Shown in pieces: positions 1,900 to 16,801 of a stretch of DNA of 16,801 bases; within the stretch, counting starts at the first letter, position 1; the number at the start of each line of letters is the position of its first letter. A model generated the notes under the pieces. That model was given only the letters and a program-made list of their open reading frames with translations, was not told the origin of the DNA and searched no databases. The stretch is from a virus. Lineage: Duplodnaviria; Heunggongvirae; Uroviricota; Caudoviricetes. Both the position numbers and the translations under genes were made by a program. The stretch lies in the IMG/VR virus record IMGVR_UViG_2531839178_000016; one strand, 5' to 3'.

Positions 1900-2588
1900 T
1901 AGTTATTAACCCCCCATTGTTCTCCAAATACAAAACCAATTTCCGCCAGTGCTTCGTCCATTTTGTCGATGAACTCCGGCACCATCTCATCAAAACTCGT
2001 CATGTACTTTTCATCCCGCTCGACCACGACATAATGCAGGCCTTCACGCTTCATGCGTGGGTCGTAGTTGGCGAAGTACCAGGCGTCCTTGTCTGTAACC
2101 CACATGCTGAATTGCACCTGGGCCATGTAAGCAGGCTTGATAGCGTCAAAGCCGCCAAGCCGGAACTTCATGAAGTCGCGGGAAGTGAAGGGGCATTTAA
2201 GCTCAAGGCCGTTACCGTCGCTGCATAAACCGTCGGGAGAGCAGGCGGTGCGCATGCTTTCGTCACGAAAAATTATTGGCGTTTCCGAGACGGTAACATC
2301 CGCGATAAATTCGAAGATGGCACGGGCATCATCTTCGTATTGCTTTCCCCATGCGAGCGACTTAGCGTTAACTTCCGGTGCCACGCCGGTACAAACTTCA
2401 GCCAGCAGGGTGTGGAAGTATGAGATTTTTGTATCAGGCCATTTGCTGCCGGAACGTGGCTTTGCTATCACATTGTGAACTTCTGAAGCAGTGATAACAC
2501 CGAGTCTCAGCTTGTGCCATCCATCATCGCCCTGGTCGAGGCTGGTAATATCCACGCCAGTTCGCTGGAGAATAATTTCTGGTGTCAT
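1899..2588 (-). CDS. exo: lambda-type exonuclease (Red-alpha / YqaJ family)
   Basis: 229-aa protein co-linear with recalled lambda Exo (MTP.IILQRTG..., [86 protein letters not shown]). Start overlaps the recT stop (ATGA). Confidence 0.9.
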
Positions 2589-3190
2589 GACACGGCCTCG
2601 CTGCTATTTTCCGTGGTGGCGTGAATTTTCGCTTCCGCCGTGGCCTTGTTTCTGGCAGCTTTCTTTTTGACAAAATCAAGCGTTTTGACAGCTTCTTCCT
2701 GACTGAGATATTCATGTGATGCAATCGTGCGACGGAATGTTTTGGAACATAAGGGAAGCAGGTCATCCCATGTCTTGTTAATTTCGGTGATTGCCTGAGT
2801 GATCTCATTGATAATCTCATCTGATGCGGGAGTGACGTCACGCTCAGGGATGTGATCAGCATTCAGGATGATACCTTCACCGGCCTGAGTGTTCAGGTAG
2901 TCGATAGCTGTATCCAGGCGATCGCGACGGGGCCAGTATTTGCTGGCGCGCTTAACAATGGCTTTTCTGGCCATTTCATCGGGGAAACTATCCCACGGGC
3001 TACTTCCTCCGTTATTTCCGGCTTTGCTGCACGCCCTGATGACCTCGATTTCCCTGTTGCTCATCTCTTCGGTCAGATAGTCGCCTTCGGATGTTTTTAC
3101 GACACAATAACCGCCAATGCGTGCGCCCCTGTCTACGAATGGGTTGTATTTGTGCGTGGGGGCGCAGTCAATACCGTTGGACTCGTAAAT
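2585..3190 (-). pseudogene. recT: recT/bet-type single-strand annealing protein, C-terminal two-thirds (5-prime end removed by IS600 insertion at 3190/3191)
   Basis: The reading frame is open from the IS600 boundary: IYESNGIDCAPTHKYNPFVDRGARIGGYCVVKTSEGDYLTEEMSNREIEVIRACSKAGNNGGSSPWDSFPDEMARKAIVKRASKYWP..., which parallels E. coli RecT (...VTHVYAVARLKDGGTQFEVMTRKQIELVRSLSKAGNNGPW...MAKKTAIRRLFKYLP). The N-terminal part is at 11944..12291. Confidence 0.8.
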
Positions 3191-3254
3191 TGAGGTAGCC
3201 TGAGTTTAACGGACACTCCTTCCTGAAATAGAATGGCATCAGAAGGAGCTAATA

Positions 3255-3517
3255 ATGAGCAGAAAAACCCAACGTTACTCTAAAGAGTTCAAAGCCGAAG
3301 CTGTCAGAACGGTTCTTGAAAATCAACTTTCGATCAGTGAAGGCGCTTCCCGATTATCCCTTCCTGAAGGCACTTTAGGACAATGGGTTACCGCCGCCAG
3401 AAAAGGACTCGGTACTCCTGGTTCCCGCACGGTGGCTGAACTGGAATCTGAAATTCTGCAACTGCGTAAGGCGTTAAATGAAGCTCGCCTTGAGCGAGAT
3501 ATATTAAAAAAAGCAAC
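3255..3517 (+). pseudogene. IS600 orfA, interrupted by IS30 after ...ERDILKKAT
   Basis: MSRKTQRYSKEFKAEAVRTVLENQLSISEGASRLSLPEGTLGQWV... is the IS600 OrfA sequence. The frame reads into the IS30 terminal repeat at 3518. The remaining orfA codons (AYFAQESLKNTR*) resume after IS30 at 4741. Confidence 0.85.
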
Positions 3518-4738
3518 TGTAGATTCAATTGGTCAACGCAACAGTTATGTGAAAACATGGGGTCGCGGAGGTTTTTTGAATGAGACGAACATTTACAGCA
3601 GAGGAAAAAGCCTCTGTTTTTGAACTATGGAAGAACGGAACAGGCTTCAGTGAAATAGCGAATATCCTGGGTTCAAAACCCGGAACGATCTTCACTATGT
3701 TAAGGGATACTGGCGGCATAAAACCCCATGAGCGTAAGCGGGCTGTAGCTCACCTGACACTGTCTGAGCGCGAGGAGATACGAGCTGGTTTGTCAGCCAA
3801 AATGAGCATTCGTGCGATAGCTACTGCGCTGAATCGCAGTCCTTCGACGATCTCACGTGAAGTTCAGCGTAATCGGGGCAGACGCTATTACAAAGCTGTT
3901 GATGCTAATAACCGAGCCAACAGAATGGCGAAAAGGCCAAAACCGTGCTTACTGGATCAAAATTTACCATTGCGAAAGCTTGTTCTGGAAAAGCTGGAGA
4001 TGAAATGGTCTCCAGAGCAAATATCAGGATGGTTAAGGCGAACAAAACCACGTCAAAAAACGCTGCGAATATCACCTGAGACAATTTATAAAACGCTGTA
4101 CTTTCGTAGCCGTGAAGCGCTACACCACCTGAATATACAGCATCTGCGACGGTCGCATAGCCTTCGCCATGGCAGGCGTCATACCCGCAAAGGCGAAAGA
4201 GGTACGATTAACATAGTGAACGGAACACCAATTCACGAACGTTCCCGAAATATCGATAACAGACGCTCTCTGGGGCATTGGGAGGGCGATTTAGTCTCAG
4301 GTACAAAAAACTCTCATATAGCCACACTTGTAGACCGAAAATCACGTTATACGATCATCCTTAGACTCAGGGGCAAAGATTCTGTCTCAGTAAATCAGGC
4401 TCTTACCGACAAATTCCTGAGTTTACCGTCAGAACTCAGAAAATCACTGACATGGGACAGAGGAATGGAACTGGCCAGACATCTAGAATTTACTGTCAGC
4501 ACCGGCGTTAAAGTTTACTTCTGCGATCCTCAGAGTCCTTGGCAGCGGGGAACAAATGAGAACACAAATGGGCTAATTCGGCAGTACTTTCCTAAAAAGA
4601 CATGTCTTGCCCAATATACTCAACATGAACTAGATCTGGTTGCTGCTCAGCTAAACAACAGACCGAGAAAGACACTGAAGTTCAAAACACCGAAAGAGAT
4701 AATTGAAAGGGGTGTTGCATTGACAGATTGAATCTACA
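3518..4738 (+). mobile_element. IS30 (complete, 1221 bp) nested in IS600; flanked by 2-bp duplication AC
   Basis: Terminal repeats TGTAGATTCAATTGGTCAACGC (3518) and GCATTGACAGATTGAATCTACA (ends 4738). AC is present on both flanks (3516..3517 and 4739..4740). Confidence 0.95.
3580..4731 (+). CDS. insI: IS30 transposase (383 aa)
   Basis: Full-length ORF with N-terminal HTH and C-terminal DDE-type catalytic domain, bounded by IS30 inverted repeats. Identical translation to the copy at 13238..14389. Confidence 0.95.
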   Translation: MRRTFTAEEKASVFELWKNGTGFSEIANILGSKPGTIFTMLRDTGGIKPHERKRAVAHLTLSEREEIRAGLSAKMSIRAIATALNRSPSTISREVQRNRGRRYYKAVDANNRANRMAKRPKPCLLDQNLPLRKLVLEKLEMKWSPEQISGWLRRTKPRQKTLRISPETIYKTLYFRSREALHHLNIQHLRRSHSLRHGRRHTRKGERGTINIVNGTPIHERSRNIDNRRSLGHWEGDLVSGTKNSHIATLVDRKSRYTIILRLRGKDSVSVNQALTDKFLSLPSELRKSLTWDRGMELARHLEFTVSTGVKVYFCDPQSPWQRGTNENTNGLIRQYFPKKTCLAQYTQHELDLVAAQLNNRPRKTLKFKTPKEIIERGVALTD

Positions 4739-4815
4739 ACAGCGTATTTTGCACAGGAGTCGCTGAAAAATACGCGTTAATCGAACAATGGCGACAACAA
4801 TTTCCCATTGAAGCG

Positions 4816-5634
4816 ATGTGTCAGGTATTTGGTGTATCCAGGAGCGGTTATTACAACTGGGTACAGCATGAACCCTCAGACAGAAAACAAAGTGATGAGC
4901 GGCTAAAACTGGAGATTAAGGTGGCACATATCCGCACTCGCGAAACATATGGAACCCGGCGGCTCCAGACGGAGCTGGCAGAGAATGGCATCATCGTTGG
5001 TCGTGACCGACTGGCACGTCTTCGTAAGGAGCTAAGGCTACGCTGTAAGCAGAAACGCAAGTTCAGAGCGACTACGAACCCGAACCACAATCTGCCAGTT
5101 GCGCCAAATCTGCTGAACCAGACGTTCGCTCCTACAGCACCAAATCAGGTCTGGGTGGCGGACCTGACGTATGTTGCCACACAGGAGGGATGGTTGTACC
5201 TCGCTGGCATCAAAGATGTTTATACGTGCGAAATTGTCGGCTACGCCATGGGAGAGCGCATGACAAAAGAGCTGACAGGTAAAGCCCTGTTTATGGCGCT
5301 CAGGAGCCAGCGCCCACCTGCCGGGCTAATCCACCACTCTGATCGAGGTTCACAGTACTGCGCATACGATTACCGGGTCATACAGGAGCAGTTTGGTCTG
5401 AAAACATCAATGTCGCGTAAAGGTAACTGTTACGACAACGCTCCGATGGAAAGCTTCTGGGGAACGCTGAAAAATGAGAGCCTGAGCCACTATCGTTTTA
5501 ATAACCGGGATGAAGCCATCTCAGTAATACGGGAATACATTGAGATTTTCTACAATCGTCAGCGTCGTCACTCTCGTCTGGGGAATATCTCCCCGGCAGC
5601 CTTCAGGGAAAAATATCATCAGATGGCTGCTTAA
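4816..5634 (+). CDS. IS600 transposase OrfB frame (DDE integrase); the OrfAB fusion is prevented by the IS30 insertion
   Basis: 272-aa ORF with IS3-family motifs (WVADLTYV, HSDRGSQYCA, GNCYDNAPMESFW). Matches recalled IS600 OrfB. Confidence 0.85.
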   Translation: MCQVFGVSRSGYYNWVQHEPSDRKQSDERLKLEIKVAHIRTRETYGTRRLQTELAENGIIVGRDRLARLRKELRLRCKQKRKFRATTNPNHNLPVAPNLLNQTFAPTAPNQVWVADLTYVATQEGWLYLAGIKDVYTCEIVGYAMGERMTKELTGKALFMALRSQRPPAGLIHHSDRGSQYCAYDYRVIQEQFGLKTSMSRKGNCYDNAPMESFWGTLKNESLSHYRFNNRDEAISVIREYIEIFYNRQRRHSRLGNISPAAFREKYHQMAA

Positions 5635-7136
5635 AAAAAGAACAAATGGTAGTGTCCGCTATTGCCAGTACACCTCATTGACTTGATGAAATTGTGCACT
5701 TCAACCGAGGTTTGCAGCGGCGCGTTACTGAAGCCTTTAGGCCACACCCCGAACTTCTCTTTGTAGGTATGAGCGCACCATCCGTCACTCAGTGGCTTAC
5801 CTGTCGCGTTGCGGTAATTCTGATAGCCCTTGATCTCACTCCACCACCGCTGTTTTTCCTCACGGCTGTATTCGCGTTTCCCTTTGTTTACGCGAGAGAG
5901 TTTTCGATCGCGGTCTGTTGCCACATCATCGCCACCAAGAGGACGAAACCCACATTTGGGACACATGTGTACACCAGCAGGCTTCATGAAGTGGCATTTG
6001 GGGCATTCTCTGGGAAGTTTTTCAGCTTTAACCTCGCCACCGCCAGCAGACGCTTTCATTCCGTCATTTTTGCCCGGCAGTTCGTCATACTCGATATCCT
6101 CGGGGAAACCCAGCCGATGAACCGTGCCAGAATGGTCGAAAATCAACGCACGTTGTTTACCTGGGGCTGTACGTAACGCTCTACCTATGCACTGCAACCA
6201 ACGGATTTCTGATTTTGTCGGACGGGCATAGATCAGGCAGCGAACATCGCTGTCAAATCCCGCAACCAGTACGCCGACGTTGACAATTATTTTGGTCACG
6301 CCCTCTTCAAAACGGCGAATGATGTCCTGTCGTTCATCATGGAGGGTATCTGCCGTCATCACCTCTGCGCCAATACCGGCCTGTAAAAACTCACGGGTAA
6401 CAAAATTCGCATGCGCAACATTCACACAGAAGCAGATCGTCGGCAAATCCTCACCATTCTCAAGCCAGTTGCGAACGATATCGCCAACCAGATCCGAACT
6501 CCCCATGATGGATGCGAGCTGCTCCTCGTTGTAATCCCGTCCAAATACGGTGTTACTGGTTTTTACGCCAGCCAGATCAGGCATTGAGGGGGCAAAAAAC
6601 TCATAATCGCTCAGATCACCACGCTGAATAAGTTCACGAATCGTTGTAGGCTTGATCAGGCATTCGTAGTACTTCCCCATCCAGGCTGCGAACGGGGTAC
6701 CGGAAAGTCCAAGAACCCTGATGTCTCTGTCCCGGATAACCTCAAGTAACGCACGACGCTTCATGTGTGCTTCATCGATGATCAGCAGATCGATGTTGTT
6801 AGGAAACTCACGACGGATCAGCGTGTCGGCACTGGCAATCTGAATCAGTCGTGACGGGTCATAGTTAGGGTGATCACGCCATACAAAACTGATTTCTTCC
6901 CACGGCAAACCGTATTCGGTGAAACGTTCCGCTGTCTGGTTCAGCAGGATGGTGTACGGACAGACAAACATCACTCGCATACCACGTTCAACCATTCCGG
7001 CGGTGACGAATGCTGCAAGACCAGTTTTGCCAGAGCCAGTGGGTGCATACATCAGGTACGTGCGATGCTGTTTCCACTGGTGCCGCAGCTGGTTTAAACC
7101 GCGCTCCTGAGCAAAGTTTGGGATTATTTTCAGCAT
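5631..7136 (-). CDS. SF2 DEAH-box helicase (ResIII-like core plus C-terminal zinc ribbon); native 3-prime end replaced by IS600 sequence from 5677 downward
   Basis: Motif I APTGSGKT, motif II LLIIDEAH, motif III SGTPF, motif VI QCIGRALR, then CPKCHF...CPKCGF zinc ribbon. The last about 15 codons (MRCTGNSGHYHLFFF) lie in the IS600 right end. Start overlaps the stop of the upstream 128-aa gene (ATGCTGA). Confidence 0.85.
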   Translation of the reverse strand: MLKIIPNFAQERGLNQLRHQWKQHRTYLMYAPTGSGKTGLAAFVTAGMVERGMRVMFVCPYTILLNQTAERFTEYGLPWEEISFVWRDHPNYDPSRLIQIASADTLIRREFPNNIDLLIIDEAHMKRRALLEVIRDRDIRVLGLSGTPFAAWMGKYYECLIKPTTIRELIQRGDLSDYEFFAPSMPDLAGVKTSNTVFGRDYNEEQLASIMGSSDLVGDIVRNWLENGEDLPTICFCVNVAHANFVTREFLQAGIGAEVMTADTLHDERQDIIRRFEEGVTKIIVNVGVLVAGFDSDVRCLIYARPTKSEIRWLQCIGRALRTAPGKQRALIFDHSGTVHRLGFPEDIEYDELPGKNDGMKASAGGGEVKAEKLPRECPKCHFMKPAGVHMCPKCGFRPLGGDDVATDRDRKLSRVNKGKREYSREEKQRWWSEIKGYQNYRNATGKPLSDGWCAHTYKEKFGVWPKGFSNAPLQTSVEVHNFIKSMRCTGNSGHYHLFFF

Positions 7137-7516
7137 GACGCCCCCTTGCTACGTGATTTACCCGTTGCCGGGATCACGTCGATCTCATCGCTAACGTATT
7201 GATCCGGATTACGTGAACAGCGCAGAAGCACGATACCAGGAATGCCGTATAGCTTGAGTCTGCGCAGTTTCAGTATTGAACGTGCCCGTGGTGACGCTCT
7301 GTCCACCTCGATCGCGCACCGTTCACCAGATGGGGCAACGACCATGATATCGACGAATCCGCGCTTACCGTTGCCCATATCAACCAGATAATTACGTTCG
7401 ATCGCCAGTCCGGCATCACGCAATTTGGCAGCCAGCACATAATCAAACGTGACCTTGTCTTTTCCGGTGTAGAATTTGTTTCCGAGCAGGCTGATAACCA
7501 CATGTTTGATGAACAT
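7130..7516 (-). CDS. hypothetical protein (128 aa), translationally coupled to the helicase; possible nuclease-like fold (very tentative)
   Basis: ORF with ATG start and coupled stop/start overlap with the helicase. Contains D...E.D spacing (GFVDIMVV...AIEVD) reminiscent of, but not diagnostic for, PD-(D/E)xK nucleases. Confidence 0.5.
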   Translation of the reverse strand: MFIKHVVISLLGNKFYTGKDKVTFDYVLAAKLRDAGLAIERNYLVDMGNGKRGFVDIMVVAPSGERCAIEVDRASPRARSILKLRRLKLYGIPGIVLLRCSRNPDQYVSDEIDVIPATGKSRSKGASC

Positions 7517-7697
7517 GGTACTATTTCCACCGTAATGGTTAGTGTAATAACAATTTCTCCAAAAACCATCTCACCCTATACAGTGATCTACCTAACCTAT
7601 GGAGCTGCCTTCCTCTGGTAGTGCCCTTACAGGCACGGATGTTACAGATCTGCCCCCTTACCCCCTTCTTAGTAAAATTTCAAGCGCAATGGTTTCA

Positions 7698-7714
7698 TGT
7701 GAAATCATTTCACA
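7698..7714. repeat. perfect 17-bp palindrome TGTGAAATCATTTCACA (candidate operator or protein-binding site)
   Basis: Read directly from sequence. Lies in the 220-bp intergenic region between the 93-aa gene and the 128-aa/helicase genes. Confidence 0.6.
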
Positions 7715-7736
7715 AAAATAATCACCTTGATGAGAT

Positions 7737-8018
7737 CTATTCCTTCCGTATCGCTACTGGCGAAAGCATCCAGCCACGGCTGGCTCTCGCGTACTTCTGG
7801 ACATACACCCGTAACCGGGTGTTGGCGCTCCGTCTTGCCCTGTTGCCCTTCCTGAACGATACAGGCTCCTTGTCCCACTCTTCCTGGTACACTCTCGCGT
7901 ACTCTGCTGCAATTTTTACCCTGGTGGTCGGGTCTAGCTGTAACAATTGCTCCTGTATCCAGTCCCGATCAGCATCACAGTACTGATCGGGCATAACCGT
8001 TTTGATTTGCCTGTTCAC
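7737..8018 (-). CDS. hypothetical protein (93 aa) in the cII-equivalent position; GTG start
   Basis: GTG start preceded by GGAGG at 5-nt spacing, 22 bp downstream of the cro-like stop on the same strand. Charged helical-looking sequence, no recognisable family. Confidence 0.5.
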   Translation of the reverse strand: MNRQIKTVMPDQYCDADRDWIQEQLLQLDPTTRVKIAAEYARVYQEEWDKEPVSFRKGNRARRSANTRLRVYVQKYARASRGWMLSPVAIRKE

Positions 8019-8040
8019 TCACACCTCCGATGGAGGGTTA

Positions 8041-8280
8041 TCAGGCTGTTTGCCTTACATGAAGCGGAATACCATCTTCCATGTTTAGGTAGTCATGCGG
8101 GTTTAGTTCATGGGGAGTTACATTCCAGTCTGTAGCTTTTGCCCATTCAATGGCTTTCCGCCCCTGAGGCATGTATCTCCCTGTAATAACCCCACTGACA
8201 AATCCCTGAGAAACTCCAACAATCGCCGCAAAATCGGCTTGTCTGATAGAGCTTTGTCTCAAGTACTCGTCAAGAGTCAT
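8041..8280 (-). CDS. cro: Cro-like small HTH regulator (79 aa)
   Basis: Divergent from cI across a 105-bp region. Size and HTH-like segment (QADFAAIVGVSQGFVSGVITGRYMP) fit Cro/YdaS-type proteins. GGGAGG RBS 6 nt before ATG. Confidence 0.65.
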   Translation of the reverse strand: MTLDEYLRQSSIRQADFAAIVGVSQGFVSGVITGRYMPQGRKAIEWAKATDWNVTPHELNPHDYLNMEDGIPLHVRQTA

Positions 8281-8385
8281 AGAGATCCTCCCATTTCAAT
8301 TTTCCGATATTAGCTTACCTGATTTAAATGTCAATAGGCTAGCTATTTGATAAATATTTGTGTTGCTAATAAAATCGGAGGCACT
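8281..8385. promoter_or_regulatory. cI/cro divergent control region (PR- and PRM-like promoters; operator sites not resolved)
   Basis: Minus strand: -35 TTGACA (8329..8334), 16-bp spacer, -10 TAATAT (8307..8312), driving cro. Plus strand: -35 TTGATA (8347..8352), 17-bp spacer, -10 TAAAAT (8370..8375), giving a nearly leaderless cI transcript. Predicted start sites are about 82 bp apart. Confidence 0.6.
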
Positions 8386-9105
8386 ATGACGAAGAAAATT
8401 ACAATTACTGACAAAGACATCCAGAACGCTGAACGACTGCGCAAAATCTGGGATGAAAAACGGAAACAGCTATCCCTAAGCCAGGAAAAAGCCGCAGATA
8501 TCCTCGGCTTCAAAACGCAGGGGGCTGTTAGTCAGTTATTGAACGCAAAAATTGCGTTAAATACTGAAAATACCCTTAAGTTTGCGGCTTTATTACAGGT
8601 TCCTGCGGAAGAAATTAATCCAGATCTGAGTGATTTGTTACGCAGTATTCGTACCCACACACCGGGAAACAGGCGTAACCTGTTCGAGAAATATTACGAA
8701 TATCCGTTACTCTCCTGCGTACAGGCTGGAGCTTTCTCAATGGATGATTTTTCGTACACCGCAAAGGATGCGATTAAGTGGATCTCCACCACCACAAAAG
8801 CCAGTGACAGGTCGTTCTGGCTGGAGGTCAAGGGGCATTCAATGACCGCGCCGCAGGGTGGTAAACCCAGTTTCCCCGAAGGGATGCTGATACTCGTTGA
8901 CCCTGAGCGGGAGATTGAGGATGGCGATTTTTGCGTGGCCCGAATGAATGGCGATGAATTCACCTTCAAACGATTCATTCGTGAGAGCGGTAAAGCGTAC
9001 CTGGAGCCACTCAACCCACGATTCGACATGATTGAGTGTAACGAAAACTGCCAGTTTGTCGGAAAGGTCATAAAGTCGCAGTGGAATGATGAGACTTTTG
9101 ATTGA
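8386..9105 (+). CDS. cI: CI-type prophage repressor (HTH plus LexA-like S24 autopeptidase domain), 239 aa
   Basis: Co-linear with recalled lambda CI: Ala-Gly cleavage site (CVQAGAFS), catalytic Ser (GHSMTAP) and Lys (FTFKRF), [33 protein letters not shown] at 8386 preceded by GGAG. Confidence 0.9.
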
Positions 9106-9226
9106 ACTCACAGGATGATATCAATAACCTTGCAGGGAGGCTATTTTATTTCCTTTTTCAGCGAAAAATCTCCGAGAACCCTCGCCCAATGCGGGCGGGG
9201 AGCAGTCGCAATCAAGTGAGCCATAA

Positions 9227-9400: not shown

Positions 9401-9426
9401 AACCCGGCCTTGGTGCCGGGTTTTGT
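9399..9426. terminator. bidirectional intrinsic terminator between convergent cI and hicB
   Basis: AAAACCCGGCCTTGGTGCCGGGTTTT: 8-bp GC-rich stem, 6-nt loop, A-run upstream and T-run downstream. Confidence 0.7.
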
Positions 9427-9511: not shown

Positions 9512-9856
9512 TTAAGCCCCTGTGTGATGGTTGACTTCTTTTTCCAGCGCCTTATTAACAAAGGCGTTCAGTGATAAATCTTCTTCCATCGCCATTTCAG
9601 CGACCCGACGATGCAGTTCTGGATCAAGTCTGACGTTAAACACACCTTTAAACGGGGTATCAGGCTCCTTTCCATCCTCCACACAAGACTGTAAATACAG
9701 CTCAACCGATGTCTTAAACTCCTGTTCCAGTTCAGCTAATGTAGAAGCCTCATAAGTTACCAGGTCTCGAATAAACGCCAGTTTTCCGTACAGGATATTA
9801 TTTTCAAAATCTGGTTCTACTGTACCTAAATATCCTTTATATTTTAGATGATTCAT
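9512..9856 (-). CDS. hicB: HicB-family antitoxin (114 aa)
   Basis: N-terminal HicB fold motifs (YKGYLGTVE...FYGK...IRDLVTYEASTLAELEQEF) and C-terminal ribbon-helix-helix-like tail (FNVRLDPELHRRVAEMAMEEDLSLNAFVNKALE). Start overlaps the hicA stop (ATGA). Confidence 0.8.
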   Translation of the reverse strand: MNHLKYKGYLGTVEPDFENNILYGKLAFIRDLVTYEASTLAELEQEFKTSVELYLQSCVEDGKEPDTPFKGVFNVRLDPELHRRVAEMAMEEDLSLNAFVNKALEKEVNHHTGA

Positions 9857-10107
9857 AATACCCCAGCCTCTTTCAGATTCTGTTTAATCGCTTTCAGCGT
9901 TCCACCTTTAATATAACTTTCTGGATGTGGGCGATGCATTAATATGGTGTGGTTGATTTCAGCATTGAAAAACCGCACTCTTGAGCCCTGCATTTCCTTT
10001 TTGACATATCCCAGAGAGGAAAACAAAACGACCAACTCATCCCATTCAAACGTTTTTTTACTGTTTAAAAACTTTTCCAGTAGCTTATCTGCTTTCCCCA
10101 TACCCAC
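9853..10107 (-). CDS. hicA: HicA-family toxin (mRNA interferase), about 82-84 aa; start at GTG 10107 or ATG 10101
   Basis: C-terminal HicA signature (GSRVRFFNAEINHTILMHRPHPESYIKGGTLKAIKQNLKEAGVL). Toxin-first order with 4-bp overlap onto hicB. Confidence 0.8.
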   Translation of the reverse strand: MGMGKADKLLEKFLNSKKTFEWDELVVLFSSLGYVKKEMQGSRVRFFNAEINHTILMHRPHPESYIKGGTLKAIKQNLKEAGVL

Positions 10108-10759: not shown

Positions 10760-10819
10760 TGGCGAACACCTCATAAAACGGGTGCCGGGATTAGCACCCC
10801 GAAAGTTACTCGAGCGCAT

Positions 10820-10842
10820 AACCGCGCTGAAGCGGTTTTTTT
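10820..10842 (+). terminator. intrinsic terminator inside the rha leader, about 75 nt downstream of the predicted start site
   Basis: AACCGC-GCTGAA-GCGGTT followed by TTTTTTT. Flanked by an outer inverted repeat CGCATA...TATGCG. Confidence 0.6.
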
Positions 10843-11008
10843 ATGCGTAATGCACAGCCACATTCAAATTATGGTGAGGCGTGCGGGGCAGCCGCAAGGC
10901 TGGCCGGGTTCTCGAGTGACCGGTAGTGCTAACCCTGTGCGTCTCACCACCCATGAGATTAGCACCTCTGGTGGTGAGTTAATTAACTTATCACTTGAGG
11001 ATGTCATT

Positions 11009-11647
11009 ATGGCTACTACCCTTTCTCACCCTGACGTAACCATCGAAAATGGTCGCGCCGTCACTACTTCTATTTCGATTGCTGAGTTTTTTGGCAAGCA
11101 GCATCACCATGTTGTTCAGAAAATAGAATCCCTCGAATGCTCTGAGCAATTCTTAACCCGCAACTTTTCGCGGGTTAAATTCGAACACCGAGGCAATACC
11201 TATAACGCCTACCAAATCACCAAAAACGGCTTCGTTTTTCTGGTGATGGGCTTCACCGGCAAAAAAGCAGCTGCATTCAAGGAAGCCTACATTGCTGAAT
11301 TCGATCGCATGGAAAAACAACTATGGGAACAGAAACAACTGGCCCTGTCTTCTCCTGCGATGAATATCAATTTCCCTTTATCGTGGTTTTCAGAGCATCA
11401 CCCCTATGCCACGATGAACTATGTTGATAGAAATACATTGCAGCTTGATACCTCCGTCTTATTCGACATGCCAAGCCCTGCAATGCGCATATTTAATGAA
11501 TTACGTCGTAACGGCTATAACGTCGATGCGGCTGTCGCCGAATTTAACGCCTTCAAGCATCTGACGGAAGAAATGCGCCGTAAATTGCTGGATATTTCCT
11601 GCACATCGGAAAAGTCTTCCCGCTTTGGTTTCAACGTTAATCTTTAA
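11009..11647 (+). CDS. rha: Rha-family phage regulatory protein (212 aa)
   Basis: N-terminal Rha-type region (VTTSISIAEFFGKQHHHVVQKIESLECSEQFLTRNF...YQITKNGFVFLVMGFTGKKAAAFKEAYIAEFDRME). Start ATG at 11009 chosen for GAGG RBS at 8-nt spacing; the longer ORF from 10850 overlaps the structured leader. Confidence 0.75.
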   Translation: MATTLSHPDVTIENGRAVTTSISIAEFFGKQHHHVVQKIESLECSEQFLTRNFSRVKFEHRGNTYNAYQITKNGFVFLVMGFTGKKAAAFKEAYIAEFDRMEKQLWEQKQLALSSPAMNINFPLSWFSEHHPYATMNYVDRNTLQLDTSVLFDMPSPAMRIFNELRRNGYNVDAAVAEFNAFKHLTEEMRRKLLDISCTSEKSSRFGFNVNL

Positions 11648-11655
11648 TTAACCCC

Positions 11656-11678
11656 ATCCCCGATCACATATCGGGGAT
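11656..11678. repeat. 23-bp hairpin palindrome ATCCCCGAT-CACAT-ATCGGGGAT just after rha (weak terminator or binding site)
   Basis: 9-bp perfect stem, 5-nt loop, AT-rich flanks on both sides. The downstream T-run is imperfect. Confidence 0.4.
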
Positions 11679-11783: not shown

Positions 11784-11926
11784 GCAGCCTTTTTTTACCC
11801 AAAGAAGCCCAACTGGCACTCACTGGCGAAAAAGCTGAAGAGGCGTACAACGATTATATCTCAGCGATCGCCTATGCTCGGGCGGAAGAAGAATGGGAGA
11901 GAAAATTCTCCCCCTGTCCTTTCTGA
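11780..11926 (+). CDS. candidate small ORF (48 aa) immediately upstream of recT
   Basis: MSSLFLPKEAQLALTGEKAEEAYNDYISAIAYARAEEEWERKFSPCPF. Coupled to the preceding micro-ORF. Occupies the position of gam/kil/cIII-type small genes. Confidence 0.35.
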   Translation: MSSLFLPKEAQLALTGEKAEEAYNDYISAIAYARAEEEWERKFSPCPF

Positions 11927-11943
11927 TTTTCAGGACCAAAAAA

Positions 11944-12291
11944 ATGTTCGATATCGTTGAATTTGTTAAGCAGCAGGAGCGCTTTTTCTGCAAGGCATTA
12001 ACTGAACCGACGCTGACATGGGCGAAGGAAAGTCAGTTTGCAATTCAGCAATTCCAGAAAAATGCCTTTCTGGCTGACACAGCACGGGCAAATCTGCCCA
12101 GCGCACAGAACGCTATCATCAATGTTGCCGCCATCGGCATAACCCTGAACCCGGCCAGCAAGCTGGCGTATCTGGTCCCACGAAAAAAGGCTGTATGCCT
12201 GGATATCAGTTATATGGGGCTTCTGCATCTGGCACAGGTCACAGGAGCCATTCAGTGGGGGCAATGCAAACTTGTTTACGAGAAGGACATT
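11944..12291 (+). pseudogene. recT: recT/bet-type single-strand annealing protein, N-terminal third (3-prime part removed by IS600 at 12291/12292)
   Basis: ...NAIINVAAIGITLNPASKLAYLVPRKKAVCLDISYMGLLHLAQVTGAIQWGQCKLVYEKDI parallels the RecT N-terminal region (SAIVQCSQLGLEPGS...AYLLPFG...GYRGMIDLARRSGQI...VVREGDE). The frame runs into the IS600 end. An alternative start at 11893 is possible. Confidence 0.75.
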
Positions 12292-12334
12292 TGAGGTGTA
12301 CTGGCAATAGCGGACACTACCATTTGTTCTTTTT

Positions 12335-13153
12335 TTAAGCAGCCATCTGATGATATTTTTCCCTGAAGGCTGCCGGGGAGATATTCCCCAGACGAGAGTG
12401 ACGACGCTGACGATTGTAGAAAATCTCAATGTATTCCCGTATTACTGAGATGGCTTCATCCCGGTTATTAAAACGATAGTGGCTCAGGCTCTCATTTTTC
12501 AGCGTTCCCCAGAAGCTTTCCATCGGAGCGTTGTCGTAACAGTTACCTTTACGCGACATTGATGTTTTCAGACCAAACTGCTCCTGTATGACCCGGTAAT
12601 CGTATGCGCAGTACTGTGAACCTCGATCAGAGTGGTGGATTAGCCCGGCAGGTGGGCGCTGGCTCCTGAGCGCCATAAACAGGGCTTTACCTGTCAGCTC
12701 TTTTGTCATGCGCTCTCCCATGGCGTAGCCGACAATTTCGCACGTATAAACATCTTTGATGCCAGCGAGGTACAACCATCCCTCCTGTGTGGCAACATAC
12801 GTCAGGTCCGCCACCCAGACCTGATTTGGTGCTGTAGGAGCGAACGTCTGGTTCAGCAGATTTGGCGCAACTGGCAGATTGTGGTTCGGGTTCGTAGTCG
12901 CTCTGAACTTGCGTTTCTGCTTACAGCGTAGCCTTAGCTCCTTACGAAGACGTGCCAGTCGGTCACGACCAACGATGATGCCATTCTCTGCCAGCTCCGT
13001 CTGGAGCCGCCGGGTTCCATATGTTTCGCGAGTGCGGATATGTGCCACCTTAATCTCCAGTTTTAGCCGCTCATCACTTTGTTTTCTGTCTGAGGGTTCA
13101 TGCTGTACCCAGTTGTAATAACCGCTCCTGGATACACCAAATACCTGACACAT
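12335..13153 (-). CDS. IS600 transposase OrfB frame
   Basis: Translation identical to 4816..5634. Confidence 0.85.
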   Translation of the reverse strand: MCQVFGVSRSGYYNWVQHEPSDRKQSDERLKLEIKVAHIRTRETYGTRRLQTELAENGIIVGRDRLARLRKELRLRCKQKRKFRATTNPNHNLPVAPNLLNQTFAPTAPNQVWVADLTYVATQEGWLYLAGIKDVYTCEIVGYAMGERMTKELTGKALFMALRSQRPPAGLIHHSDRGSQYCAYDYRVIQEQFGLKTSMSRKGNCYDNAPMESFWGTLKNESLSHYRFNNRDEAISVIREYIEIFYNRQRRHSRLGNISPAAFREKYHQMAA

Positions 13154-13230
13154 CGCTTCAATGGGAAATTGTTGTCGCCATTGTTCGATTAACGCGTATT
13201 TTTCAGCGACTCCTGTGCAAAATACGCTGT

Positions 13231-14451
13231 TGTAGATTCAATCTGTCAATGCAACACCCCTTTCAATTATCTCTTTCGGTGTTTTGAACTTCAGTGTCTT
13301 TCTCGGTCTGTTGTTTAGCTGAGCAGCAACCAGATCTAGTTCATGTTGAGTATATTGGGCAAGACATGTCTTTTTAGGAAAGTACTGCCGAATTAGCCCA
13401 TTTGTGTTCTCATTTGTTCCCCGCTGCCAAGGACTCTGAGGATCGCAGAAGTAAACTTTAACGCCGGTGCTGACAGTAAATTCTAGATGTCTGGCCAGTT
13501 CCATTCCTCTGTCCCATGTCAGTGATTTTCTGAGTTCTGACGGTAAACTCAGGAATTTGTCGGTAAGAGCCTGATTTACTGAGACAGAATCTTTGCCCCT
13601 GAGTCTAAGGATGATCGTATAACGTGATTTTCGGTCTACAAGTGTGGCTATATGAGAGTTTTTTGTACCTGAGACTAAATCGCCCTCCCAATGCCCCAGA
13701 GAGCGTCTGTTATCGATATTTCGGGAACGTTCGTGAATTGGTGTTCCGTTCACTATGTTAATCGTACCTCTTTCGCCTTTGCGGGTATGACGCCTGCCAT
13801 GGCGAAGGCTATGCGACCGTCGCAGATGCTGTATATTCAGGTGGTGTAGCGCTTCACGGCTACGAAAGTACAGCGTTTTATAAATTGTCTCAGGTGATAT
13901 TCGCAGCGTTTTTTGACGTGGTTTTGTTCGCCTTAACCATCCTGATATTTGCTCTGGAGACCATTTCATCTCCAGCTTTTCCAGAACAAGCTTTCGCAAT
14001 GGTAAATTTTGATCCAGTAAGCACGGTTTCGGCCTTTTCGCCATTCTGTTGGCTCGGTTATTAGCATCAACAGCTTTGTAATAGCGTCTGCCCCGATTAC
14101 GCTGAACTTCACGTGAGATCGTCGAAGGACTGCGATTCAGCGCAGTAGCTATCGCACGAATGCTCATTTTGGCTGACAAACCAGCTCGTATCTCCTCGCG
14201 CTCAGACAGTGTCAGGTGAGCTACAGCCCGCTTACGCTCATGGGGTTTTATGCCGCCAGTATCCCTTAACATAGTGAAGATCGTTCCGGGTTTTGAACCC
14301 AGGATATTCGCTATTTCACTGAAGCCTGTTCCGTTCTTCCATAGTTCAAAAACAGAGGCTTTTTCCTCTGCTGTAAATGTTCGTCTCATTCAAAAAACCT
14401 CCGCGACCCCATGTTTTCACATAACTGTTGCGTTGACCAATTGAATCTACA
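13231..14451 (-). mobile_element. IS30 (complete, 1221 bp) nested in IS600 copy 2
   Basis: Same terminal repeats as 3518..4738. Same right-hand junction sequence (ACAGCGTATT) as copy 1. Confidence 0.95.
13238..14389 (-). CDS. insI: IS30 transposase (383 aa)
   Basis: Translation identical to 3580..4731. Confidence 0.95.
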   Translation of the reverse strand: MRRTFTAEEKASVFELWKNGTGFSEIANILGSKPGTIFTMLRDTGGIKPHERKRAVAHLTLSEREEIRAGLSAKMSIRAIATALNRSPSTISREVQRNRGRRYYKAVDANNRANRMAKRPKPCLLDQNLPLRKLVLEKLEMKWSPEQISGWLRRTKPRQKTLRISPETIYKTLYFRSREALHHLNIQHLRRSHSLRHGRRHTRKGERGTINIVNGTPIHERSRNIDNRRSLGHWEGDLVSGTKNSHIATLVDRKSRYTIILRLRGKDSVSVNQALTDKFLSLPSELRKSLTWDRGMELARHLEFTVSTGVKVYFCDPQSPWQRGTNENTNGLIRQYFPKKTCLAQYTQHELDLVAAQLNNRPRKTLKFKTPKEIIERGVALTD

Positions 14452-14659
14452 GTTGCAGAATTTCAGATTCCAGTTCAGCCACCGTGCGGGAACCAGGAGT
14501 ACCGAGTCCTTTTCTGGCGGCGGTAACCCATTGTCCTAAAGTGCCTTCAGGAAGGGATAATCGGGAAGCGCCTTCACTGATCGAAAGTTGATTTTCAAGA
14601 ACCGTTCTGACAGCTTCGGCTTTGAACTCTTTAGAGTAACGTTGGGTTTTTCTGCTCAT
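14452..14659 (-). pseudogene. IS600 orfA fragment, shortened by a 55-bp deletion next to the IS30 IRL
   Basis: OrfA reads MSRKTQ...ELESEILQL and then meets IS30. Copy 1 has a further 18 codons (RKALNEARLERDILKKAT) before IS30. Confidence 0.8.
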
Positions 14660-14859
14660 TATTAGCTCCTTCTGATGCCATTCTATTTCAGGAAGGAGTG
14701 TCCGTTAAACTCAGGCTACCTCAAAGGACCGAACAAACGAAACAGCAATGAGACCGTTGCGAAAAGCGACAATAGACAAATTCCCTGAATATATCGACCC
14801 GCGCCTGCGTAATTACCGCTCACGCTATGGCGCTATCAGTAATGACTGAGGAATTTACC

Positions 14860-15621
14860 ATGAGAGGACTTGCATACAATCCCGGCATTCTTCCGGCAGA
14901 AATGATTATTCGCCAACGCGTAAAGCCAATGCCATCGAGAGAGGAATTGCTTAAGAGAAATTCTTTTCCGTCAGTGAATCAAAAACAAATATCTGAATGC
15001 TATGTGGCGCAAAGGAGGCAAACAGTGAGCGAAATTGACTATCAGGCACTGCGTGAAAAGGCAGAGAAAGCAACGTGGGGTGTGTGGTCGCTCGAATATG
15101 GAGAGGAGAAACTTGATGCTGATGATGCGCTAATTCACCGTGAAGTTGTTGGATATCTTCCTATTTGCAGAATTGAAGGAGCGCATCCTGAAAGCGGTTT
15201 CGATGAAGATTTCCAAATGGAACAGCAGGCCAATGCTGAATTCATCGCCGCAGCCAATCCGGCTACTGTGCTGACACTGCTGAGCGAGCTGGAAACAGCA
15301 AAAAAGCGCATAGCAGAACTGGAAGCCAAACCTGTAAGCCAGACTTACAAGTTGAATGAGATGTCGGGCAACTCTCCGGTAATTCCGGATGGTTGGATAA
15401 GCTGTAGTGATCGAATGCCTGAAAAGGGCCAGAACGTACTTATTTCGGTGAATTTCGATAGCTCTCTGGTTGAACCGCTAATATGCTCCGCACGCTATAC
15501 CGGAGGTACATTCCGGCGTGGAGATGTAACGGTTAAGCCAGGTAATGGTATTGAACAGGCAACCCACTGGATAGACTGGCCCCCTGAATCTCCAGACAAC
15601 CAGTATCACTTAAATAAGTGA
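14860..15621 (+). CDS. Ead/Ea22-like phage protein with C-terminal DUF551-like domain; native C-terminus replaced by IS2-derived codons
   Basis: Ea22-like motifs ([40 protein letters not shown]) then a DUF551-like segment ([20 protein letters not shown]...ATHW). IS2 begins at 15573, so the last 16 codons are IS-derived. GAGGA RBS before ATG 14860; alternative start at 14827. Confidence 0.6.
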
Positions 15622-15762
15622 TAGTCTTAATACTAGTTTTTAGACTAGTCATTGGAGTACAGATGATTGATGTCTTAGGGCCGGAGAAACGCAGACGGCG
15701 TACCACACAGGAAAAGATCGCAATTGTTCAGCAGAGCTTTGAACCGGGGATGACGGTCTCCC
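15573..15762 (+). mobile_element. IS2 left end (190 bp), interrupted by an IS629-like element
   Basis: TAGACTGGCCCCCTGAATCTCCAGACAACC... matches the recalled IS2 left terminal region. Followed by the insC start [34 protein letters not shown]. Confidence 0.85.
15663..15762 (+). pseudogene. insC: IS2 orfA (InsC) N-terminal fragment, 33 codons
   Basis: Matches the recalled IS2 InsC N-terminus and then diverges at 15763, where the IS629 terminal repeat TGAACCGCCCCGGGTTTCCTGG begins. Confidence 0.85.
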
Positions 15763-15804: not shown

Positions 15805-16687
<883 letters not shown>

Positions 16688-16691
<4 letters not shown>

Positions 16692-16801
16692 TTTTTCCAG
16701 AGGCGGTCGAACTCCGCCTTCGCAAAATAAGCGGAAGCCTGGCGAAGGATATCGTTACTGCGGCGCAGTTCACGATTTTCACGCTCCAGCTCTTTCAGAC
16801 G
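16688..16801 (-). CDS. IS629 orfA C-terminal part (partial at window edge)
   Basis: Minus-strand translation ...[37 protein letters not shown] with the A-run frameshift motif (GGAAAAAATGATG) at the orfA/orfB overlap. Confidence 0.8.

Follow-up and report, generated by a model that had tools for sequence, protein, structure and literature searches.

In the origins of SaPI/PICI-type and other helicase-primase replicons, which lie next to the pri/rep genes, a central segment has iterons to either side, and in the cer/psi systems accessory sequences occupied by host regulators (ArgR or ArcA with PepA) lie near a recombination core. Among Stx phages, "EHEC phage replication unit 1" (Eru1) was defined by Llarena et al. 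for TL-2011c, P13374 and their relatives; in these phages a helicase, a Toprim primase and a DUF1367 protein replace lambda O and P (PMC8044961). Eru1-type Stx phages are carried by the outbreak strains O104:H4 (2011) and O103:H25 (2006), and their lysogens were reported to be far less stable than those of lambdoid Stx phages, a property attributed to the replication region (PMC8044961). The two Eru papers mention neither an origin nor iterons nor the gap described below, and a 93-aa gene that borders this gap is absent from the published eru1 gene list.

The DNA analysed here (the window, 16,801 nucleotides) contains an Eru1A-type helicase gene preceded by a 220-bp gap with a 17-bp perfect palindrome. 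Our preferred reading, to which we assign a probability of about 0.4, is that the palindrome serves as docking site for a dimeric or tetrameric protein and is the upstream arm of a pair of sites bracketing a conserved core, the whole element being the Eru1 origin or its immediate control region.

Replication genes and state of the prophage

Two sets of sequences were used for comparison. The wide set consisted of 80 loci from Enterobacterales, the order across which the helicase family is spread, each with a helicase alignment. The close set was collected with an exact 25-mer from the gap, which occurs in 29 prophage contigs of IMG/VR; after addition of two annotated records and of the window itself, it comprised 23 distinct sequences of two cassette types, and the alignment made from it (A2) contained 22 sequences.

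A gene for a LexA-family CI-like repressor (8347-9105) is the only plus-strand gene of the region. On the minus strand follow the genes for a Cro-like HTH protein (8041-8280), a 93-aa protein (7737-8018), a 128-aa protein (7130-7516) and an SF2 DEAD/DEAH helicase of the Eru1A type (5631-7136, or 5678-7136 before an IS junction, cut after residue 486). The 93-aa gene lies upstream of the helicase in about 78 of the 80 loci, with homologues of 32-58% identity in the wide set and an invariant motif EPVSFR..NRAR..ANTRLR. Its product is confidently predicted to form a three-helix bundle (pLDDT 81), for which no PDB match and only unnamed viral matches were found, and a profile search against PDB sequences gave no match either; the gene may belong to the replication module without having been recognised as such. 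The 128-aa gene is an optional insert present in 14/80 loci. Its product has a conserved D...IE.D..SPR.RS motif and only weak, sub-threshold Pfam matches to restriction-endonuclease-like families (MTES_1575, NERD, Mrr_cat); the PDB profile search returned nothing meaningful, and the structure model (pLDDT 43) was too poor for use.

Aligned to the Stx-type phage Lyz12581Vzw, the window is 97.5% identical over the helicase (5675-7149) and 97.7% identical over the 93-aa gene, cro and cI (7743-9113), with no match over 7150-7742; at the protein level the helicases are 99% and the 128-aa proteins only 37% identical. Given the missing match and the divergent 128-aa protein, the gap and the 128-aa gene form a mosaic cassette, which includes the palindrome.

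Identical inverted IS blocks of 2165 nt, encoding an IS30-like 383-aa transposase and an IS3-family 272-aa orfB, lie at 3513-5677 and 12292-14456, and the helicase is cut by a block end at 5677/5678. The primase and DUF1367 genes are missing from the window, and recT is split into 11893-12294 (plus strand) and 2585-3064 (minus strand). This arrangement points to a defective prophage that has undergone an inversion or deletion by way of its IS elements. As the helicase is truncated and the primase lost, the prophage is defective here and the site in this copy is probably a relic; the practical importance for the window itself is low because of this disruption.

Further IS fragments were noted at 1-278, 3530-3807, 14162-14439, 3190-3464 and 14450-14724, and an ALIL pseudoknot, a frameshift element of IS3-family transposases, at 16617-16733 (minus strand, 120 bits). 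Rfam models identified an isrK sRNA (10766-10842, plus strand) and a C4 antisense RNA (10867-10954, plus strand) immediately before and overlapping the start of an antirepressor-like gene with Rha/Ash domains (10850-11647, plus strand); this region is a secondary immunity module of the P1/Gifsy type. A HicB-family antitoxin gene (9512-9856, minus strand) lies downstream of cI, with a candidate HicA partner ORF at 9853-10107.

The non-coding element and its core

The palindrome lies, as the earlier note had pointed out, in the sole sizeable gap of the early operon, adjoining the replication genes. This gap (7517-7736, minus strand) consists of a flank site, a G-rich core with GATC and a second flank site, and is the only non-coding stretch of the module, in which the helicase, primase, DUF1367 and NinG genes abut or overlap. 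Across the 80 loci the order is 93-aa gene, at least 180 nt of non-coding DNA, helicase, with the non-coding stretch always after the 93-aa gene. The element keeps a single orientation within the operon, and additional genes, where there are any, are inserted between it and the helicase. An extra ORF in this place in four loci (L083, L099, L100, L107) has an N-terminus (..EKWAPVP..YEVS..GRVR) that reads, by eye, as HNH/NUMOD-type homing endonuclease-like.

Of the 80 helicase loci, 60, drawn from many Enterobacterales genera, have a G5-6/N2-3/G5-6 tract after the 93-aa gene and, with it, a core that contains GATC. The tract was defined as G(4+)-N(1-4)-G(4+) located 11-180 nt past the stop codon of the 93-aa homologue; the core is missing in the other 20 loci. 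The G-tract of the window, GGGGGTAAGGGGG (7653-7665, minus strand), is the signature of the core, past which come further conserved blocks ending in CATAGGTTA(A/G)GTAGATC, one or more GATC and an A-run. The 25-mer used for the close set, CATAGGTTAGGTAGATCACTGTATA (7577-7601, minus strand; GATC at 7585-7588), belongs to this core and is traceable from Yersinia to Xenorhabdus as CATAGGTTAAGTAGATC. A local GC hairpin, GTGCCTGTAAGGGCAC (7621-7636, minus strand), is lineage-specific, with other sequence in its place in relatives. In composition, the core has 31 G and 17 C in 94 nt, and GATC is enriched 2.1-fold in the element.

About 20 helicase loci thus have no G-rich core. Six of these were read (L032, L038, L043, L049, L063, L085) and show paired palindromes such as CGACAGGATCTGTCG / CGACAAGGCTTGTCG between TAAAAATCAATNTGTTA repeats, followed by an extra small gene; in these six the gap is an alternative element in the same place.

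The conserved blocks do not form a common RNA structure. RNAalifold gave 0 consensus pairs for 38 diverse cores and a low covariation term for the 22 close sequences, the gap of the window folded no better than its shuffles (z = -0.09), and Rfam had no match in the gap, either at the gathering threshold (window and seven related loci) or at E values up to 5 (7450-7800). With neither a consensus structure nor an Rfam match, what is conserved is the primary sequence, a sign of DNA recognition or of an unstructured G-rich transcript. A known RNA family or a structured RNA of the put or nut type was rejected on the same grounds. An intrinsic terminator was also rejected, the palindrome stem being AT-rich (-5.6 kcal/mol) and a T-run being absent after it on both strands; a promoter and terminator scan of 7300-8400 likewise found no terminator in the gap, and no sigma-70-like promoter on either strand of 7517-7736.

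Patterns for DnaA and IHF are not enriched in the element (ratios 0.4 and 0), and those for Fis are enriched 2.1-fold, a weak signal from a degenerate pattern. An AT-rich unwinding segment was not found, the core being G-rich with only a short conserved A-run, and a search for plasmid homologues of the element found none. An Xer/dif-like core was discarded since a by-eye check showed no XerC arm. A plus-strand 40-aa ORF (7599-7721) and a 16-codon minus-strand ORF were judged, by eye, unlikely to be coding, in view of gaps between the two cassettes in A2 and of ATG loss in relatives.

The palindrome, its partner and the equivalent sites in relatives

The palindrome TGTGAAATCATTTCACA occupies 7698-7714, where its perfect 8-bp arms around a central C were verified; it reads TGTGAAATGATTTCACA on the minus (sense) strand, follows the stop codon of the 93-aa gene (7737-7739) at a distance of 23 nt and constitutes the upstream flank site of the element. 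The earlier note had considered such a repeat unlikely by chance. First-order Markov simulation contradicts this, with 0.47 perfect palindromes (arms 8 bp or longer, spacer 0-1) expected per 16.8 kb, one observed, and a probability of 0.36 for at least one per window. The exact pattern with free centre, TGTGAAATNATTTCACA, is present in 17 IMG/VR contigs, 14 of which are unrelated, mostly AT-rich and without the genes of the window; by our estimate these 14 occurrences are about at chance level. By itself the palindrome is therefore not statistically remarkable, and it is its context that exceeds chance. With spacers of up to 6 allowed, the window contains six perfect inverted repeats whose arms measure 8 bp or more, where 1.8 are expected (P = 0.01); other perfect inverted repeats are TATCACTTAAATAAGTGATA (15604-15623), AACCCGGCCTTGGTGCCGGGTT (9401-9422), TCCCCGATCACATATCGGGGA (11657-11677) and TTCTTCAGGAGTCTGAAGAA (1002-1021).

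Absence from homologous prophages, which the earlier note had named as evidence against a regulatory role, applies to the perfect 17-bp form, kept in only 3/23 distinct homologous sequences, and not to its inner 11 bp, which are retained. The columns of this inner dyad, GAAAT-N-ATTTC (7701-7711, minus strand), are invariant or at least 90% conserved in A2, and the outer bases 7698-7700 and 7712-7714 are variable: the right-arm end TCACA changes to TCGCA, TCTCA, TCATG, TCATA or TCGCG within the window's own cassette type, and the left-arm end TGT to CTA or TCA in the cassette type of Stx2a phages. The inner dyad is thus kept across two diverged cassettes whose surrounding spacer is only about 80% identical. 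It is also kept (ATGAAATAGTTTC) in the Salmonella prophage with the closest helicase (81% identity), which has GAAAT-type sites like those of the window.

On the far side of the core lies a degenerate partner site, GGAGAAATTGTTATTA (7545-7560, minus strand), whose GAAAT-NN-TTAT part (7547-7557) is invariant in A2 in its GAAAT and TTAT columns and conserved equally to the inner dyad; its GAAAT is 154 bp from that of the palindrome. The putative functional unit is best described as the inner 11 bp, acting in concert with this partner site. On the sense strand of the 220-nt gap GAAAY occurs five times (7711, 7696, 7681, 7557, 7527), where 0.53 occurrences are expected and none of 2000 dinucleotide shuffles reaches five. 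The three upstream copies belong to a block, read from the sequence, of three 15-nt units, TGTGAAATGATTTCA / CATGAAACCATTGCG / CTTGAAATTTTACTA (7670-7714, minus strand), with TGAAA starting at 7712, 7697 and 7682. Tandem Repeats Finder reported a period of 15 with 2.5 copies in the homologue E2855; in the window itself the 15-nt periodicity is below threshold and no repeat was reported. In addition, a 23-nt direct repeat with copies either side of the core, AACCATTGCGCTTGAAATTTTAC (7672-7694, minus strand) and AACCATTACGGTGGAAATAGTAC (7518-7540, minus strand, overlapping the ribosome-binding site of the 128-aa gene), is 78% identical between copies and gives p = 0.01 for the window in a flank-similarity test in direct orientation. 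Several copies of a recognition motif are clustered here beside replication genes, as in iteron-type origins.

The same bipartite arrangement, with other motifs, is seen in relatives. The flanks of the core share a motif at p<0.05 in 19/56 loci in direct and 18/56 in inverted orientation, where about 3 are expected by chance, and the motif copies are confined to the element, about 135-175 bp apart, with none in the cI/cro regions. Two common motif types, located at the position of the palindrome, resemble operators of Escherichia coli K-12, for which the trp operator CGAACTAGTTAACTAGTACG and the metJ-metB operator TTTAGATGTCCAGATGTATTGACGTCC were used as comparison sequences. The pattern GTACTAG-N4-CTAGTAC shares its architecture with the trp operator bound by TrpR; the gaps of 32 loci contain 54 matches to it, and the other 523 kb contain one. 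For AGACGTCT-like boxes of 8 bp in tandem, built as the met boxes bound by MetJ, there are 54 matches in 24 loci and nine elsewhere. Relative to the rest of the loci, the density in the gaps is 420-fold higher for the trp-operator-like and 66-fold higher for the met-box-like pattern. The window differs from both, having 0 matches at up to 3 mismatches.

Example flank sites from the L032-L111 set lie at 2770-2787 and 2919-2936 of L046, at 2606-2615 and 2766-2775 of L033, and at 1917-1934 and 2068-2085 of L119, an E. coli prophage with GTACTAGGTTGCTAGTAC-type sites. Trp-operator-like sites extend to an E. coli prophage whose helicase is more distant. As a rule the better dyad of a relative is the upstream one, with a degenerate site downstream. 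So it is in the window, its partner 7545-7560 having the same position as the degenerate downstream trp-operator-like and met-box-like sites. In many cases the downstream site sits right before the ribosome-binding site of the following gene. It is mainly as the positional equivalent of these operator-like sequences that we take the palindrome to be a protein-binding site.

Judged by their sequence, the relatives' sites may be bound by host TrpR or MetJ. No TrpR-like or MetJ-like gene was found within 3 kb upstream of the helicase in two representative loci. A literature search for TrpR and MetJ sites in prophages yielded nothing relevant. The repeat type follows neither the tree of the 93-aa protein nor those of the helicase N- or C-terminal parts, so that co-variation with an initiator was not seen, and three loci (L050, L088, L109) have different motif types on the two sides of the core.

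For the GAAAT type, to which the window's own site belongs, the nearest known motif is the IclR box, TGGAAATNATTTCCA (PMC8222616, Table 1). The inner 11 bp GAAAT-N-ATTTC of the palindrome are identical to the box, with equal odd spacing; a 10-mer, AAATGATTTC, is common to the palindrome and the K-12 iclR operator TGAAAATGATTTCCA, and GAAATTGTT is common to the downstream partner and the aceB site. On the other hand, the palindrome matches 10/14 specified positions, the four mismatches being at chance level; a box scan did not recover it at up to 3 mismatches, where chance already gives 1.3 matches per window, and adjacent dyads in the window are 15 bp apart instead of 18-22. The window also agrees with the MetR consensus, TGAA-N5-TTCA, although relatives do not conserve the outer T and A.

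Several other binders were set aside. The prophage's own CI and Cro, which the earlier note had listed, are excluded by the cI-cro region (8281-8346), which has a different dyad, TCAATAGGCTAGCTATTTGA, and no copy of GAAAT-N-ATTTC. The 128-aa protein was rejected as an optional component (14/80 loci), and the consensus sequences for ArgR, TyrR, Fur, Lrp, GalR/LacI-type regulators, Cra and NrdR do not fit in spacing or half-sites.

Function and comparison with known systems

The earlier proposal of an operator or a part of an origin is still the most fitting one in general terms. The palindrome is the upstream member of a lineage-specific pair bracketing a widely conserved core, as would suit a protein-binding site, an origin region or both; the regulators proposed for it, CRP and CI/Cro, did not find support. 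From this arrangement we infer the following course. A sequence-specific dimeric or tetrameric DNA-binding protein would dock at the palindrome, which together with the degenerate partner would bracket the G-rich, GATC-bearing core; the spacer thus bracketed, between the 93-aa gene and the helicase/primase genes, would be the origin region of the replicon or its immediate control region. The flank sites would attract a protein by which the core is organised or gated, and the G-run on the non-template strand may help DNA opening as the early transcript passes.

An origin is favoured by the element being the only non-coding stretch of the module, by recognition sites on both sides of its centre, by the 2.1-fold enrichment of GATC and by the non-template G-run under the early transcript. 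Against an origin stand the absence of DnaA and IHF sites, a centre that is not AT-rich and the quarter of the helicase loci that have no core. The docking-site reading as a whole is weakened by the repeat type tracking neither the 93-aa nor the helicase trees, by loci with a different motif type on each side, by the chance frequency of the palindrome alone and by the sub-threshold 15-nt periodicity in the window.

A purely transcriptional gate ahead of the helicase genes is nearly as likely as an origin. The palindrome would then be possible, if somewhat doubtful, as an operator only: a host or phage regulator bound at the two flank sites would gate read-through from pR or an unrecognised promoter in the core and so control helicase, primase and, further downstream, Q. 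The dyad is operator-like, the equivalent sites of relatives resemble operators of the trp repressor and MetJ, the downstream site often immediately precedes a ribosome-binding site and the element always has one orientation in the operon. However, a sigma-70-like promoter was found on neither strand of the gap and none is evident in the conserved core, one site would be enough for a roadblock and a pair about 150 bp apart would not be needed, and it is left unexplained why the G-tract and CATAGGTTAAGTAGATC are so strictly conserved.

Compatible with either function, though rather unlikely in our assessment, is the more specific proposal that in the E. coli/Salmonella lineage the palindrome corresponds to the trp-operator-like and met-box-like sites of other genera and that a host metabolic regulator docks at it, with IclR-like and MetR-like proteins as leads. 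Prophages would in that case bracket their replication-gene entry or origin with operators of a host repressor adopted by each lineage, and phage replication would be coupled to the amino-acid, SAM or carbon status of the host; in Stx phages the Q-dependent toxin output would be coupled to it as well.

We consider it unlikely that the palindrome is functionless, an AT-rich repeat of a decaying prophage that was lengthened by chance and perfected by drift in this sub-lineage. Its chance frequency, its perfect form in only three of the 23 sequences, its unrelated occurrences elsewhere in IMG/VR and the IS-ridden prophage with truncated helicase and missing primase would all agree with such an origin of the full 17 bp; the inner 11 bp, however, are kept across the diverged cassettes and in the Salmonella relative, the motif is enriched in the gap, and the position is that of the operator-like sites of other genera.

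Improbable, too, is an RNA hairpin in the early-transcript spacer, acting on stability, processing, pausing or translation of the 128-aa gene. The site is transcribed within the operon, and of the four right-arm substitutions found in relatives, three (A to G, C to U, A to G) would still pair as G-U when read on the sense strand, but the hairpin is weak (-5.6 kcal/mol, z = -1.85, with 12/200 shuffles folding as well), is followed by neither U-run nor terminator and is left with only 4-5 pairs in the Stx2a-phage cassette, and the gap as a whole has neither better folding than shuffles nor a consensus structure across genera nor an Rfam match. A CRP-cAMP site, as first proposed for the palindrome, is barely credible: both pentamer arms of TGTGA-N6-TCACA are there, but the spacer is 7 instead of 6, the TCACA arm belongs to the non-conserved part and varies in relatives, the scan of 7300-8400 found no promoter nearby, and the homologous gaps show no excess of CRP-type matches (density ratio 1.1).

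The interest of the locus lies less in the palindrome than in its element and in the operator look-alikes of relatives. The gap is a conserved bipartite non-coding element across Enterobacterales, previously undescribed and an obvious candidate for the origin or cis-acting control of Eru1, and supplies defined sequences for mutation. Should the TrpR-like and MetJ-like sites of relatives hold, they would offer a testable link between host metabolism and prophage replication.

Among known systems, cer/psi offers a conceptual likeness only, as an Xer-type core and recombinase are not involved in the element; common to both is that the regulator taken from the host differs between mobile elements while its position, about 150-180 bp away from a conserved core, is equivalent. 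Closer in position is the lambda origin, with dyad-symmetric sites of about 17-19 bp downstream of cro and of a gene in the cII position, crossed by transcription from pR. The lambda iterons differ in being four tandem copies inside the O gene, beside an AT-rich stretch, whereas the sites of the element are non-coding and bracket a G-rich core, and Eru1 phages have no O or P (PMC8044961). From the SaPI/PICI origins the element differs in its centre, which is G-rich with GATC and not AT-rich, in sites that do not co-vary with the helicase, and in having two sites about 150 bp apart instead of dense iteron arrays. With these origins it shares repeated, lineage-specific sites that flank a central segment, a non-coding location adjoining the helicase and primase genes, and specificity modules swapped between lineages.
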